64,000 nucleotides of DNA from a virus (IMGVR_UViG_3300030376_001752:4118-68117), one strand, 5' to 3'. Positions 22,989 to 64,000 are shown, counted from the stretch's first letter. Notes: a model not told the origin generated them from the letters alone. Program-made: numbers and translations.

Positions 22989-24182
22989 ATGAGACAATTG
23001 CTAATTATAGTATTATTACTATCAAGTATCACAGGCTTTTCACAAGAGAAGAAAAATTTATTTAAATCTATATACGAAGACTTTTTTAAGTACAGTACCT
23101 TTTATGTAGCTGGTGATATAGAAAATCCAAAAGAAGAAGTTAAAGATTACTTTGTAAGAACAAATCCAGACGGTGGTTTATATGACATACCTGTTGTAGT
23201 AGACGGGACAGACTATTATGACTTTGATTATAGATATGGTTTTGGTGTGCGTAAACTAGCAAGGTTTGATTACGAGTTTAAAGGTAAACATTATTATGAT
23301 GGTACTGAAAGTAGTGTAGGTTTATCAGCTACTAACTCGCCTGTAAAAGGATTTGAGTATTTGTTTCATTGGGAAAAAGAAAGAGAAAGAGACGAGGTAT
23401 TTAATAATCACAGGTACTTCTTAAAGCATAGTGGAGATTATCACGTTGTTAAAATAGAAAGTAGAGCACAAGGTAAGGTTGATTTTAATTATAAATCAGC
23501 TGAGATAAAAGCTAAACTACCTATTGGTAATAAATTTAGTTTATCTGCTGGCGCAATATATCGTACACATGAAAGACCTTATGGATATAATCCTATAGAA
23601 ATATGGTTAAACGAAACACAAGTTATAGATGGTCAGGAATACCCAGTTAACTACTGGTATGAATTAGGTTTCGAATATGGATATGACGATATATACTACA
23701 CTCAAACAGATCAGTTTGGTAATGAGACCAGCGATTGGTATTGGATAGATCCAGAAGGAAACATTGTTGCTGATAGCGATTTAGAGTTTCGTGATGGTGT
23801 ATTTGCAGATCTTATGAATCAATATAATAATGAAATATTTGAAGACATAGACGCTTTCGGTGTTGTTTCACCTGTGGTCGGTTTTGACTTTTATCATTAT
23901 AAAAATAATTTTTGGCTACATGCTTACGGTAATTATTTATTACCATACCACAAGTATGTTTCAGGTGACGAAGACTTTAGTTATTTAAATAGAAACAACT
24001 GGGGTAAAGGCGGACTGGTACAAGACTCAGAGCCAGAGCAATGGGAAGATTATCAAGCCGGTGTGGTGTTTGGTTGGAAGCTAAGCAAGTCAGTCGGTTT
24101 GTTTGTTGAAGGAGAATATACTAAATTCTGGGATAGTAAAATCTATAACAGTTCTGTTGGATTAAATATAACACTAAGATAA
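22989..24182 (+). CDS. Putative outer-membrane beta-barrel protein
   Basis: Signal peptide ending GFS|Q; Tyr/Phe/Gly-rich amphipathic strands; C-terminal strand YNSSVGLNITLR. Confidence 0.6.
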   Translation: MRQLLIIVLLLSSITGFSQEKKNLFKSIYEDFFKYSTFYVAGDIENPKEEVKDYFVRTNPDGGLYDIPVVVDGTDYYDFDYRYGFGVRKLARFDYEFKGKHYYDGTESSVGLSATNSPVKGFEYLFHWEKERERDEVFNNHRYFLKHSGDYHVVKIESRAQGKVDFNYKSAEIKAKLPIGNKFSLSAGAIYRTHERPYGYNPIEIWLNETQVIDGQEYPVNYWYELGFEYGYDDIYYTQTDQFGNETSDWYWIDPEGNIVADSDLEFRDGVFADLMNQYNNEIFEDIDAFGVVSPVVGFDFYHYKNNFWLHAYGNYLLPYHKYVSGDEDFSYLNRNNWGKGGLVQDSEPEQWEDYQAGVVFGWKLSKSVGLFVEGEYTKFWDSKIYNSSVGLNITLR

Positions 24183-24466
24183 TGGCAAAGCAAATAGGAG
24201 AAGAGACTAAGATAACACTAGATCTTAAAACAATAGGTATGATTGTAGGTTTTACAATTACTTTAGCAAGCATGTATTTTGTAATGCAGGCAGATATAGC
24301 TAGAGCTATGGAACTACCAGCGCCTGTAATTGATAGAGTTGAATATGATTTAAAAGACGAGTTAATACGTCAAACAATCATGGACACACAAGATGATGTA
24401 GAAGAAATAAAAGAAACTATTGATAAGATAGATCAAAGATTATACGAAATACAAAAAAATAGATAA
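24182..24466 (+). CDS. Single-TM protein with C-terminal coiled coil
   Basis: TM 'IGMIVGFTITLASMYFVM'; acidic coiled-coil tail (spanin-like topology, inference). Confidence 0.6.
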   Translation: MAKQIGEETKITLDLKTIGMIVGFTITLASMYFVMQADIARAMELPAPVIDRVEYDLKDELIRQTIMDTQDDVEEIKETIDKIDQRLYEIQKNR

Positions 24467-24876
24467 TGAAACAATTAATTTTACTTTTAATACCGTTTTT
24501 ATCATTTGCTCAGTCAGACGTGCCAGAAAAATATTGGATAGATGATACTAATTTTGAAGAAAAAATAAATATAAAAGAAGCTTTCGGAGATGACAACACT
24601 AAACCTGTTGTTGTAGAGTTTTGGGCAAAGTTTAACGAGAAAAACTGTTTTGCTCAATGGGAAGAATTAGAAGATGCTGTGTACTATAGAGTTGATATAG
24701 CTAACGCACCAGAAGCTAAAAAGAAATATAAAGTCCGCATGGCACCAACTTTAATTATTTTTAAAGATGGTTTTAAAGAAGAGGTTTTTAAAGCTGGTTT
24801 AGATCTAACACTGCCAGCTGATCTAACAGATGTCCAAGAAGCTATTAATGAAGTTAATAACGCTAGTAAGTTTTAG
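24466..24876 (+). CDS. Secreted thioredoxin-fold protein lacking CxxC
   Basis: Signal peptide SFA|Q; 'VVVEFWAKFNEKNC' replaces WCxxC; 'RVDI...KYKVRMAPTLIIFKDG' thioredoxin C-terminal pattern with the cis-Pro position retained. Confidence 0.7.
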   Translation: MKQLILLLIPFLSFAQSDVPEKYWIDDTNFEEKINIKEAFGDDNTKPVVVEFWAKFNEKNCFAQWEELEDAVYYRVDIANAPEAKKKYKVRMAPTLIIFKDGFKEEVFKAGLDLTLPADLTDVQEAINEVNNASKF

Positions 24877-25186
24877 TATTTTAATACTAACAAGCTGTGC
24901 TAGTAGTAATATAGGTAAGGACAAATATTATCATTTTGCAGCAGGTGGAACATCTAGTTATGTTGCTAGTGAGCTAGACATGCCAGAAGTTACTTCTGCT
25001 TTTGTAGCTGGTTTTACAAAAGAAACTTATGATTATATTCGTTATGGCTATTTTGATGTTAAAGATTTAGCTGCTACAACGTTAGGTGGAGTAGTTATAA
25101 AATATATAATTAAATTAATAAAGAATGAGAAAACTAATAAAAAAATTCCTGAAAGACGTTTGGAACTACCTTTGGTCGAAAACTAG
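24848..25186 (+). CDS. Lipoprotein, YfiM/DUF2279-like
   Basis: MKLITLVSFSILILTS|C lipobox; 'DKYYHFAAG...KETYD...DLAATTLGG' pattern. Start moved from the track's 24830 to 24848. Confidence 0.6.
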   Translation: MKLITLVSFSILILTSCASSNIGKDKYYHFAAGGTSSYVASELDMPEVTSAFVAGFTKETYDYIRYGYFDVKDLAATTLGGVVIKYIIKLIKNEKTNKKIPERRLELPLVEN

Positions 25187-25358
25187 TCTTGATGAAAAAG
25201 CTATTGAAACATTAACTGAGGTTAAAAAAAGATATAAACTAACCGCGCAAGAAATACAAGATATTGCTGCGGCTATGAAGGAGGTTGGTAATCAAATAGA
25301 TGATATACCAGCTGCATTAGCAGGTAAGAAAAGAAAAGGAAGAAAAACTAAAAAATAA
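25125..25358 (+). CDS. Hypothetical protein
   Basis: 77 aa, amphipathic N-terminus, basic tail. Confidence 0.6.
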   Translation: MRKLIKKFLKDVWNYLWSKTSLDEKAIETLTEVKKRYKLTAQEIQDIAAAMKEVGNQIDDIPAALAGKKRKGRKTKK

Positions 25359-25362
25359 TAAT

Positions 25363-25728
25363 ATGTTTAAAGATAAAGAACTAAGAGGATATATAGGTGC
25401 TGCAACAGTATTTTTACTAGTAATGGGGTTATTACTGTTTTTAGCATTTTTTGAAATACCAGATACTAACAACGATATATTTAAGGTAATCGTCGGTATG
25501 TTAGTTGGTTCGCTTTCTGTTGTTATCTATACTTTTATAGGTAAAAACCCAGAGGAAGTTGAAGCACTTAAAGCTAAAAACGAAGCTTTAGAAGATAAAG
25601 TGTCAGCTATGGTTATTGAAAAAGATAAGCTAGAGGCTTTATTAAGAGATCTTCAAAACGAAATTATAGAGAAATTATCTATAACTGGTGGTAAATTCGA
25701 ATTTAAAAGCAATGGCAAAAATAAGTAA
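25363..25728 (+). CDS. Two-TM membrane protein with coiled coil (holin/spanin candidate)
   Basis: Two hydrophobic helices then a coiled coil; overlaps the endolysin start. Confidence 0.6.
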   Translation: MFKDKELRGYIGAATVFLLVMGLLLFLAFFEIPDTNNDIFKVIVGMLVGSLSVVIYTFIGKNPEEVEALKAKNEALEDKVSAMVIEKDKLEALLRDLQNEIIEKLSITGGKFEFKSNGKNK

Positions 25729-26176
25729 ACACATTAGCCACAGGGAAGGTGTGTATAGCATAACAGCGCAGAGGTTAGGCTTAGATAATAAACCTAATGA
25801 TGAACAGCTAGAATGCATGGGAACTATTGCTAGTAAAGTTTTTGAGCCATTAAGAGAGTTTGTTGGTGGACCAATAAAGATTAATTCTTTTTTTAGATCG
25901 CCAGAGCTTAACAAAGCTATAGGTGGATCAACAAAGTCACAACATTGCAAAGGCCAAGCTATAGATATAGATGATACATATGGACATGCTAGTAACGCTG
26001 AGATGTTTAAATGGGTTAGAGAAAACCTAAACTACGATCAAATGATATGGGAGTTTGGAGACGACAATAACCCAGCTTGGGTACATATAAGTTACGTAAG
26101 CCCAGAAGATAACAGAAACAGATGTTTAAAAGCATATAAAGATAATACTAACAAAACTAAATACATGATAATATGA
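25712..26176 (+). CDS. Endolysin, peptidase M15 family
   Basis: 'INSFFRSPELNKAIGGSTKSQHCKGQAIDI' and 'WVHISY' Zn-peptidase motifs. Start moved to 25712. Confidence 0.9.
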   Translation: MAKISKHISHREGVYSITAQRLGLDNKPNDEQLECMGTIASKVFEPLREFVGGPIKINSFFRSPELNKAIGGSTKSQHCKGQAIDIDDTYGHASNAEMFKWVRENLNYDQMIWEFGDDNNPAWVHISYVSPEDNRNRCLKAYKDNTNKTKYMII

Positions 26177-61022: not shown

Positions 61023-61565
61023 ATGGCAAATATAAACGACAACATAAGAGGTAAAAAATTATTTAAATCTGGTAGCTCAGGACAGTTAGCTGTTAAGGGT
61101 AGCGATGGTGAAATAACAATATCAAGTGAAAAAGCTACAGAGCTATCTGCTTTAACAGATATATCTGAAATTTATAACGACGAAGCTTTATTCCAGACAA
61201 ATAAGTTTTTATTAAAACAAATAGAAGATTTAAGAGCAGACGTAGAAGAACTACATGCTTTTACAAAAGCTGCTTTCGGTAAAGACTCTTCACAAGCTTC
61301 ATCAAAAGGTAGCAAGGGCGACACAGGTTCACAAGGACCAAAAGGTGATAAAGGTGATAAAGGTGATACTGGAGCAACTGGATCTCAAGGACCTAAAGGT
61401 AATACTGGTGCTACAGGCGCGGCTGGTGCTGATGGTAAAGACGGTAAGGATGGTAGTGACGCTTCTGTTAGTGGAGTTTCTTCAGATGTAGTCGTGGTAG
61501 TTAACTCTAAGGGAAGTACAAAGACACTAGAATTTACTAACGGACTACTGAAAACGGTTAGTTAA
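61023..61565 (+). CDS. Collagen-like (G-X-Y) virion protein
   Basis: About 17 G-X-Y triplets at about 61308-61460. Confidence 0.8.
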   Translation: MANINDNIRGKKLFKSGSSGQLAVKGSDGEITISSEKATELSALTDISEIYNDEALFQTNKFLLKQIEDLRADVEELHAFTKAAFGKDSSQASSKGSKGDTGSQGPKGDKGDKGDTGATGSQGPKGNTGATGAAGADGKDGKDGSDASVSGVSSDVVVVVNSKGSTKTLEFTNGLLKTVS

Positions 61566-61894: not shown

Positions 61895-62090
61895 TATAGG
61901 TAAAGACTATAAGAACGAAGCAATGCATTATTCTGTAGATCAAGAGGTTTATGGAGGACATATTATTGATAGTATAGTTGAAAACGAAGATAAATTTTGT
62001 ATATTTATTAAAAAACAAGACGAAGTGCTACCATGGAAAGAGTTTAATAAAAACATGGCTATCGCAGTAGAATTTAACTTGGAGTATTAA
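61872..62090 (+). CDS. Hypothetical protein
   Basis: MKLIRKISIGKDYKN...; start moved to 61872. Confidence 0.65.
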   Translation: MKLIRKISIGKDYKNEAMHYSVDQEVYGGHIIDSIVENEDKFCIFIKKQDEVLPWKEFNKNMAIAVEFNLEY

Positions 62091-62674
62091 TGAAGGGAAT
62101 TTATAACTTTGTTATCGAGCCTGTAGGCGAGAGATACAATAATGTAAAAAAAATAGGTGATAAAGATCTAATACTAAATACTAAGATGTTTACACATCAA
62201 TTTGTAAACAGAGAAGGTTTAGTGTTAGAAACACCTATTATAAACGATACTGGTATACAAAAGGGAGATATAGTTGTAGTTCATCATAACATTTTTAGAC
62301 GTTACCAAGATATAAGAGGTGAAGAAAAAAATGGTAGATCATACTATAAAGACAACAAATATTTTGTTTTTAGTGACCAAATATTTTTATACAAAAGAAA
62401 TAATATAGCCTATCCATTAAAAGGGTATACTTTTGTAAAACCAATAGAATCAAATGATATTTTTAATTTAAGTAAAGAAACTGAGTTAATGGGTATAGTA
62501 AAACATACAGACTCTAACGACTTTAAAAAAGGTGATTTAGTTGGTTTTAAACCAAGTAGTGAATACGAGTTTGTCGTAGATGGAGAAAGGTTGTATAGAG
62601 TTTTAACACCAGCAATAACAGTTAATTATGAATATCAAGGAAACGAAAAAGAATATAATCCAAGCTGGGCATAG
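62090..62674 (+). CDS. Tandem GroES-like protein
   Basis: Two halves with GroES patterns ('IQKGDIVVVH'; 'PLKGYTFVKP...KKGDLVGF...VDGERLY'). Confidence 0.55.
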   Translation: MKGIYNFVIEPVGERYNNVKKIGDKDLILNTKMFTHQFVNREGLVLETPIINDTGIQKGDIVVVHHNIFRRYQDIRGEEKNGRSYYKDNKYFVFSDQIFLYKRNNIAYPLKGYTFVKPIESNDIFNLSKETELMGIVKHTDSNDFKKGDLVGFKPSSEYEFVVDGERLYRVLTPAITVNYEYQGNEKEYNPSWA

Positions 62675-62903
62675 AGCAGTCGAGGAGCTTATTAAAGTTG
62701 CTAAAGAAGCTATTGTAGATTCTGACGATGATATATCAGCTGATAGATTAAAAAATGCTGCAGCTACAAAAAAGCTAGCTATATTCGATGCTTTTGAAAT
62801 ATTAAACAGAATACAAGACGAGCAAGACATGCTTGACGGTAAAGCAAAAGAAGAAAAGAAGGAAGAAACTTTTGGTGGTTTTGCAGAAAGAAGATCTAAG
62901 TAA
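62628..62903 (+). CDS. Putative terminase small subunit
   Basis: 91-aa helical protein whose stop overlaps the terL ATG. Confidence 0.55.
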   Translation: MNIKETKKNIIQAGHRAVEELIKVAKEAIVDSDDDISADRLKNAAATKKLAIFDAFEILNRIQDEQDMLDGKAKEEKKEETFGGFAERRSK

Positions 62904-64000
62904 TGTACGAGCAGACTTTATACAAGGTTATAGAACCTATAAAAATAAACGTAATAAAACGGCTTAATAAAAAGAAAGCATGGGATTACGGATATAACAA
63001 GGAACATGATGTTATAGTTATATCAAAAACTGGTCAAATTGGTGAAGTATATGATATACAAAATTTAAAAATAGCTTTACCTAAAATACCGAAAGAAGTA
63101 CATAAATTTGAGACTGATAGGTGGGAGGTAACAGAATATCCAAAAGAATTAAATAGAATTAAAACTATATTTGATTGGAAGCAATACCCACAAGATTTTA
63201 AAAATAAATATATAGATTATATTGAGAATGAGTTTAAGAAAAGAGAAGAAGGTTTTTGGTATTATAACAAAGGTAATCCTACTTACATTACTGGCACTCA
63301 TTATATGTACTTGCAGTGGTCTAAAATTGACGTCGGGAAACCAGACTTTCGGGAAGCAAATAGATTATTCTACATTTTCTGGGAAGCTTGTAAGGCAGAT
63401 AAACGATCCTATGGGATGTGTTACCTTAAGAACAGACGTTCCGGGTTTTCTTTCATGGCCTCTGGAGAGGTGGTCAACTTGGCAACCATATCAAGTGACT
63501 CCAGGTATGGTATATTATCAAAGTCCGGTCCTGATGCTAAGAAGATGTTCACAGACAAGGTGGTACCCATATCGGTTAATTATCCCTTCTTTTTCAAACC
63601 CATCCAGGACGGAATGGACCGTCCAAAGACCGAGCTTGCCTTCCGTGTCCCCGCGTCCAAGCTCACAAGACGGAACATTACAAGTTCCGATAAACCCGAA
63701 GCCCTACAGGGTCTTGACACCACCATCGATTGGAAGAATACCGGTGACAACTCCTACGATGGGGAGAAACTCAAACTCCTCGTACATGATGAATCGGGGA
63801 AGTGGGAACGTCCGAACAACATCCTCAACAACTGGAGGGTTACGAAAACCACATTAAGATTAGGTAGTAGAGTAATTGGTAAGTGTATGATGGGATCAAC
63901 ATCAAATGCTTTAGACAAAGGAGGAGATAACTTTAAAAGACTTTATAATGCATCAGATGTTACTAAACGAAATAGAAATGGACAAACAAGCTCAGGCCTA
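62903..64000 (+). CDS. terL: Terminase large subunit (3'-truncated; missing from ORF track)
   Basis: ATG at 62903, open to the window end; Walker A variant 'KNRRSGFS', Walker B 'LLVHDESGK', 'MGST'. Confidence 0.9.
   Translation, partial: MYEQTLYKVIEPIKINVIKRLNKKKAWDYGYNKEHDVIVISKTGQIGEVYDIQNLKIALPKIPKEVHKFETDRWEVTEYPKELNRIKTIFDWKQYPQDFKNKYIDYIENEFKKREEGFWYYNKGNPTYITGTHYMYLQWSKIDVGKPDFREANRLFYIFWEACKADKRSYGMCYLKNRRSGFSFMASGEVVNLATISSDSRYGILSKSGPDAKKMFTDKVVPISVNYPFFFKPIQDGMDRPKTELAFRVPASKLTRRNITSSDKPEALQGLDTTIDWKNTGDNSYDGEKLKLLVHDESGKWERPNNILNNWRVTKTTLRLGSRVIGKCMMGSTSNALDKGGDNFKRLYNASDVTKRNRNGQTSSGL
63228..63857 (+). CDS. Candidate overprinted (+1 frame) lipoprotein inside terL
   Basis: 209 aa: basic N-region, hydrophobic helix, 'IICTC|SG', Pro/Ser/Thr/Arg-rich tail; terL third positions turn C/G-rich over most of this span. 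Confidence 0.5.
   Translation: MSLRKEKKVFGIITKVILLTLLALIICTCSGLKLTSGNQTFGKQIDYSTFSGKLVRQINDPMGCVTLRTDVPGFLSWPLERWSTWQPYQVTPGMVYYQSPVLMLRRCSQTRWYPYRLIIPSFSNPSRTEWTVQRPSLPSVSPRPSSQDGTLQVPINPKPYRVLTPPSIGRIPVTTPTMGRNSNSSYMMNRGSGNVRTTSSTTGGLRKPH

Follow-up and report, generated by a model that had tools for sequence, protein, structure and literature searches.

The window analysed here, a stretch of 64,000 nucleotides, comprises bases 4118-68117 of a viral record of 68,117 bp, and both end at the same base. The N-terminal 366 codons of a large terminase gene (terL) occupy positions 62903-64000 on the plus strand (match to phrog_6681, E 5e-78); the gene exits the window and resumes at the start of the record, giving a total length of 739 amino acids. 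The terL annotation is shared with the relatives MW202828 and Cellulophaga phi18:3, and a P22-like portal gene directly follows the annotated terL in MW202828. Searches of terL against Pfam and PDB sequences returned no match, and AlphaFold2 modelled residues 170-341 of its N-terminal half with pLDDT <50, too low for a fold search. Its N-terminal position, the PHROG match and a putative Walker-B-like motif (LLVHDE, 63776-63793, plus strand; L292, L293, H295, D296 and E297 invariant in alignment A2) suggest that the part of terL discussed below belongs to the ATPase domain. Upstream, terL is preceded by a gene for a GroES-like protein (62090-62674, phrog_13932), and two genes upstream of the latter, positions 61023-61565 encode a 180-aa protein with a collagen-like G-x-x repeat (GDKGDKGDTGATGSQGPKGNTGATG…) and matches to tail-fibre PHROGs. 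Among named phages, the closest ones have Flavobacterium, Cellulophaga, Tenacibaculum and Maribacter as hosts, so the host of this phage is probably a marine member of the Flavobacteriaceae.

Nested within terL on the same strand is an open reading frame (ORF) of 209 codons plus a TAA stop at 63228-63857, in the +1 frame relative to the terL start, (63228-62903) mod 3 = 1. It begins with an ATG at 63228 (an alternative TTG at 63222 would yield 211 codons), opens with the residues MSLRKEKKVFGIITKVILLTLLALIICTCSG and stops with the TAA at 63855-63857; the runner-up nested ORF in the window would encode 138 aa. An earlier note on this DNA had described this ORF, and its coordinates, frame and reading of the N-terminus all proved correct. 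The predicted protein (N-terminus MSLRKEKKVFGIITKVILLTLLALIICTCSGLK) comprises a basic N-region, MSLRKEKKVFGIITK (63228-63272, plus strand), with the lowest GC content of the gene (0.20) in the DNA just upstream, a hydrophobic core, VILLTLLALII (63273-63305, plus strand), and a C-T-C-S-G motif (63306-63320, plus strand), whose small residues may form a signal-peptidase region and which contains no canonical lipobox. These are followed by a predicted disordered, basic tail rich in Ser, Thr, Pro and Arg, encoded over a GC3-rich patch of terL (63410-63857, plus strand) and containing a C-terminal motif, RTTSSTTGG (63813-63839, plus strand), over the terL residues ERPNNILNNW. Windowed GC is 0.42-0.56 across 63410-63860, compared with 0.20-0.33 before and 0.31 after, and terL GC3 is 0.59 in the patch versus 0.25 in the remainder of the gene. 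The switch in terL codon endings reported in the earlier note is thus real, with the baseline regained directly past the nested stop, and its description of the tail was likewise borne out (P+S+T 30%, R 10%, compared with 10% and 3% in dead alleles; pI 9.8-11.6).

The patch also coincides with the ends of the assembly. Positions 63705-64000 match record bases 66-361 at 99% (296 bp), forming an assembly overlap, and record bases 1-65 represent another GC-rich, likewise +1-open variant of window positions 63640-63704, in which the variable terL linker resembles that of two related loci, L036 and P0013 (…NLPPPPP.KPYR…). Since the record ends diverge into two GC-rich versions, the sample contains at least two carrier variants. 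The contig break falls inside the GC3-rich patch; the window allele may itself be a local chimera. An origin of the nested ORF as an assembly artefact was rejected, as the feature recurs across dozens of independent assemblies.

Distribution among relatives and constraint on the +1 frame

A scan of viral contigs identified 80 related metagenomic terL loci with 78-92% amino acid identity, which were codon-aligned with the window to give 81 sequences. Full carriers, the window included, make up 22 of the 81 and keep ~210 +1 codons open between the same boundaries, whereas 21 partial carriers are open over 82-185 codons and 38 non-carriers contain 6-18 stops each, from codon 12-66 on. Every full carrier has an ATG ahead of the hydrophobic segment, occupying one of several aligned positions, and in 17/21 of them it lies 0-17 codons past the last upstream +1 stop; a few partial carriers have no ATG before the hydrophobic segment. 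In the partial carriers, GC3 is 0.38 within the ORF versus 0.27 past its stop (Wilcoxon P 7e-5), while the same breakpoints reveal the opposite trend in full carriers and no trend in dead alleles. The three states are interspersed on a tree of the terL flanks, with the exception of one 18-member clade lacking the ORF, which suggests that the segment recombines among relatives. The cultured relatives MW202828, Cellulophaga phi18:3 and Flavobacterium elemoE contain neither the nested ORF nor the patch, and no carrier was found among the cultured phages of the phage collection. The earlier note had counted +1 stops in homologous terL genes against a nested gene. Such stops do occur in about half of the relatives, which we read as a presence/absence polymorphism of a putative gene that is accessory or dispensable, rather than as an absence of selection. 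Past the window end, terL codons ~360-408 (L002:300-520, where L002 is the locus at the start of the record) are free of +1 stops over ~48 codons in every relative, carrier or not, with a 70-aa ORF of mildly raised GC3 at L002:309-521; this open frame is probably forced by conserved terL residues.

The open frame could have arisen with no gene at all, as a compositional patch produced by GC-biased gene conversion at a recombination hot spot or by import from a higher-GC relative, with few stops simply by GC-richness. The apparent recombination of the segment, the contig break at this place and the two variants in the sample are in keeping with such an origin, as are the lack of constraint on most of the tail and the junk-like appearance of the protein to AlphaFold2 and language-model search (described below). 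Stop counts argue against it. When synonymous codons of the window terL were shuffled across the whole region, 0/2000 shuffles retained a stop-free +1 frame, and 0.35% did so when shuffling was confined to 35-codon blocks. In sequences grouped by GC3 alone, a grouping that reduces but does not remove the survivorship bias of a full-carrier class defined by openness, the same block-wise shuffling predicted 3.0 +1 stops per sequence in the GC3-rich group, whereas 0.32 were observed (ratio 0.11). The corresponding ratios in the controls were 0.85-0.92 when the +1 frame was examined outside the region or in low-GC3 sequences, and 1.05-1.08 when the +2 frame was. GC-richness by itself did not bring about comparable depletion, as GC3-rich blocks had ratios of 0.69-0.78 elsewhere in terL versus 0.18 in the nested region. 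Furthermore, avoidance was confined to T-A-purine at codon positions 2-3-1: xTA codons stood at 1% before a purine, the only context that creates a +1 stop, versus 31% before a pyrimidine, and codons ending in A with any other second base (C, A or G) remained at 20-34% before purines.

The carriers are also too diverged for a recent common import. Carriers differ from one another at a fraction of 0.44 of comparable third positions in the patch versus 0.38 in the flanks, and the value for non-carriers in the patch region is 43%. Divergence among 20 non-redundant carriers requires at least 396 synonymous changes, and with 6.4% of the possible changes creating a +1 stop, the neutral survival of open frames would be (1-0.064)^396 = 4e-12. 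Over the patch, the terL amino acid distance between carriers and non-carriers is 0.15, the same as inside each group, which argues against a foreign donor. The alternative in the earlier note of a recombinant from a higher-GC relative is therefore contradicted, the patches being as diverged synonymously as the flanks and the terL distances equal. In addition, the hydrophobic segment is constrained even though it is rich in T3 and not in GC3, and motif positions have fixed rare codons, so that a patch without a gene appears very unlikely. RNA structure was rejected as a cause of the patch, since folding of 63400-63860 revealed nothing unusual relative to shuffles (z = -0.12). The stop avoidance is seen again in a sister clade, with 0 +1 stops observed versus 2.6-4.7 expected and xTA frequencies of 0.00 before a purine versus 0.38 before a pyrimidine. 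Frame- and context-specific stop avoidance in two clades thus lends good support to the proposal in the earlier note of a gene overprinted on terL.

Predicted product and its export signal

Constraint on the predicted product is concentrated in a few short segments. In the hydrophobic core, terL third positions are 68% T and 7% A in carriers versus 48% and 36% in non-carriers, and the synonymous diversity of terL codons 120-139 in carriers is half that of non-carriers. T at terL third positions generates xTx (hydrophobic) codons in the +1 frame, and the hydropathy of the segment is 1.5-2.3, compared with 0-0.7 for resampled synonymous codons (P <= 0.007 in 22/22 full carriers). The C-T-C-S-G motif requires the terL codons TAC (Tyr136), TTG or CTG (Leu137) and CAG (Gln138), all of which are present in 22/22 full carriers, whereas non-carriers mostly use TAT, TTA and CAA; TTG and CTG together account for only 5% of Leu codons in the terL flanks. 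The RTTSSTTGG motif is near-invariant in alignment A1 and found in the sister clade too, with a synonymous diversity of 0.17 in carriers versus 0.35 in non-carriers and 58% C at third positions. The most conserved part of the +1 frame is C-terminal, from ...SIGR to RTTSSTTGGLRK. The synonymous constraint that the earlier note had proposed to look for was therefore detected at the hydrophobic segment, C-T-C-S-G and RTTSSTTGG, and not over most of the tail, and the nested product could matter little beyond its N-terminus.

AlphaFold2 predicted one helix at residues 3-30 of the nested protein and pLDDT <50 for the remainder, and the language-model "recognition" score lies within the range of shuffled sequences. 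Searches of the nested protein against Pfam and PHROGs returned no match, and the ESM Atlas contained just viral "hypothetical" clusters with a low recognition score. At least 83 database "homologues" were retrieved, of which those inspected are the same nested ORF, called because terL is broken by indels (2-3x long-read contigs, e.g., L083 and L084 from ENA) or by an N gap (scaffold L087), and some of their products are chimeras of both frames. As repeat calls of one ORF on broken contigs, these entries were rejected as independent support, and the inspected matches included no free-standing homologue. Assembly errors can thus plant overlapping-frame products in databases.

The earlier note had interpreted the product as an outer-membrane lipoprotein, either a spanin partner or an exclusion factor. 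In the window allele, the basic n-region MSLRKEKKVFGIITK and hydrophobic VILLTLLALII are followed by Cys27, and the two Cys contexts are LII|C and ICT|C. The lipobox consensus is [LVI][ASTVI][GAS]C, with a small residue at -1, and accepted or tested lipoboxes, including unusual ones such as AWAC, LNGC and FVGC, contain G, A or S at this position (PMC6139136). Neither window context fits, and the -1 residue in 38/38 window-type carriers is I, T or L (Cys27) or T (Cys29), so that 0/38 match the consensus. The T-C-S-G run of small residues that follows the 11-residue core is more reminiscent of a signal-peptidase I region or signal anchor.

The sister clade, in which terL is ~75% identical, contains the same nested ORF, mostly of 232-235 codons, here with a canonical lipoprotein signal, [VG][IT]GS|C (e.g., MILNNIRTILKKSIMTISTVSLLGGIMVIGS|CAT). 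Its -1 Ser requires the terL Phe to be encoded by TTC, as it is in 14/14 sequences, though TTC accounts for ~30% of Phe codons. The terL residues at the lipobox are WFMC in the sister clade versus W[YF]YN in the window type.

Lipid anchoring of the window allele itself, through Lgt and LspA at Cys27 or Cys29 as in lambda Rz1 or T5 Llp, would be consistent with this canonical signal kept by a rare codon in a homologous ORF, with the invariance of both window-type Cys residues, Cys29 being kept by a rare Leu codon, and with the existence of unusual lipoboxes (PMC6139136). We nevertheless consider it unlikely, given the I, T or L at -1 where known lipoboxes have G, A or S. Furthermore, the residue before Cys27 is dictated by terL Tyr-Met codons and Cys27 itself is forced by terL Met-Tyr, a canonical lipoprotein is already encoded beside the endolysin of this phage (see below), and no i-spanin gene is present nearby. 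The lipoprotein assignment is therefore not supported for the window allele, but it holds for the sister clade and so has merit for the family. The N-terminal signals of the two clades point to a family directed to the envelope by two different devices, with a lipid anchor predicted for the sister clade and a signal anchor or cleavage for the window type.

Taken together, we favour, with a probability of roughly two in three, a real overprinted gene that is translated in the +1 frame and yields an exported, disordered, basic accessory product of the envelope. Ribosomes would initiate internally on the late mRNA, at the ATG at 63228, which lies within the most AT-rich part of terL, presumably in the Bacteroidota manner without a Shine-Dalgarno sequence. 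The product would carry a Sec-type export signal (basic n-region, 11-residue core and C-T-C-S-G) and a tail of ~175 residues, which is predicted to be disordered, strongly basic and rich in Ser, Thr, Pro and Arg. C or G at terL third positions generates xCx or xGx codons in the +1 frame and so sets the composition of this tail. Selection would act on the open frame, the hydrophobic signal, two short motifs and the composition of the tail, and not on most of its sequence.

The +1 frame might instead be translated without an independent function of its product, either as a frameshifted terL fusion or with translation itself regulating terL or mRNA stability. The variable position of the start codon among carriers and the freedom of the tail sequence to vary are compatible with this explanation, as is the failure to find a carrier-specific internal promoter; the Bacteroidota promoter motif TAnnTTTG upstream of the nested start was rejected as a candidate, being forced by terL TIFDW and commoner in non-carriers. 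However, all full carriers have the ATG before the hydrophobic segment, mostly close behind the last stop, no slippery site was identified, and the selected signal, the sister-clade lipobox and the tail composition point to an exported product, which makes this explanation highly improbable. A small exported envelope protein is most likely the product of the nested gene.

Candidate role and comparison with known systems

A probable lysis cassette was identified at 24182-26176, ~37 kb from the nested ORF. It encodes a 94-aa protein with a single transmembrane segment (24182-24466), a 118-aa protein with a canonical lipoprotein signal, LILTS|C (24830-25186), a 121-aa protein with a transmembrane segment and a coiled coil (25363-25728) and an M15 peptidase endolysin (Peptidase_M15_3; 25688-26176; phrog_894, PF08291). 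The cassette could comprise a spanin pair and a holin. Genes for o-spanins are embedded in, overlapping with or adjacent to the i-spanin gene and are usually found in the lysis cassette (PMC6139136), whereas the gene hosting the nested ORF is terL. Since the phage already has a lysis cassette with a canonical lipoprotein beside the endolysin, a spanin role for the nested product appears unneeded. A homologue of the cassette lipoprotein was detected in two carrier genomes (G001 = L003 and G004 = L036) but in neither of two complete non-carrier genomes (G002 = L024 and G003 = L053). Replacement of the cassette lipoprotein by the nested gene was therefore not adopted as an explanation, as this pattern is the opposite of compensation and four genomes are too few to conclude. 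Being accessory, variable in length and 37 kb from the cassette, the nested gene would better fit an envelope-acting accessory factor than a core spanin. Our best guess for this candidate late envelope role is superinfection exclusion or the masking of receptors; a core step of lysis seems less likely.

Some of these features are shared with overprinted genes of very small phages. Protein E of phiX174, encoded inside gene D, has an N-terminal hydrophobic segment and a basic, poorly conserved tail, and selection acts mainly on the hydrophobic part. The nested product resembles E and the overprinted genes of microviruses and leviviruses in its hydrophobic N-terminus, basic tail and selection mostly on the hydrophobic part. 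Those genes, however, belong to tiny ssDNA or ssRNA genomes under size pressure, with E as the sole lysis gene, whereas the nested ORF is an accessory element of a dsDNA phage whose genome of 68 kb includes an endolysin cassette. Lambda Rz1 (PMC5295617, PMC6139136) is, like the nested ORF, a same-strand +1-frame gene located wholly within another late gene, and its product is exported, proline-rich and largely unstructured; the canonical lipoprotein signal is matched by the sister-clade form. In contrast, Rz1 lies in the gene of its partner, the i-spanin Rz, and not in a terminase ATPase region distant from the lysis cassette. The nested product is also 3-5 times longer than Rz1, has no canonical lipobox in the window allele and is present or absent among close relatives. 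T5 Llp (PMC9586334) is comparable in being a small, non-essential and lineage-variable envelope protein of a phage, and the sister-clade form is likewise a predicted lipoprotein. Llp differs in being a folded 7-kDa protein expressed early from a free-standing gene next to the receptor-binding gene, while the nested product is predicted to be disordered, presumably late, and encoded inside another gene.

An essential piece of phage DNA here appears to code for two proteins. Long gene overlaps are well known from very small viruses; for tailed dsDNA phages, to our knowledge, reports are rare apart from a handful of examples, Rz1 among them, and annotation pipelines disallow such genes. Searches of the full-text literature uncovered no previous description of a terL-nested gene. 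We would give even odds to the more specific proposal, taken as a whole, of a gene that arose de novo by overprinting in the essential terminase ATPase region and is still segregating, with two export signals in two clades, with lengths of ~80, 115, 150-185, 210 or 235 codons where it is not absent, and with a footprint on terL consisting of the GC3-rich tail, the T3-rich signal, fixed rare codons and terL amino acid changes such as the lipobox-creating WFMC.

If the nested gene is real, terL, which is both essential and widely used as a phylogenetic marker, has a second coding layer in some lineages that distorts its codon usage and local GC content and possibly its amino acid evolution. The combination of a local GC3 patch, frame-specific stop avoidance and a T/C third-position bias that tracks hydropathy would then constitute a signature that can be scanned for. 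The gene would also represent a candidate envelope-acting accessory factor for phages of marine Flavobacteria. Its polymorphism in presence and length would provide an unusual opportunity to follow an exported protein as it is born, tuned and lost and, should the de novo origin hold, a natural series on how new exported proteins arise and vanish.
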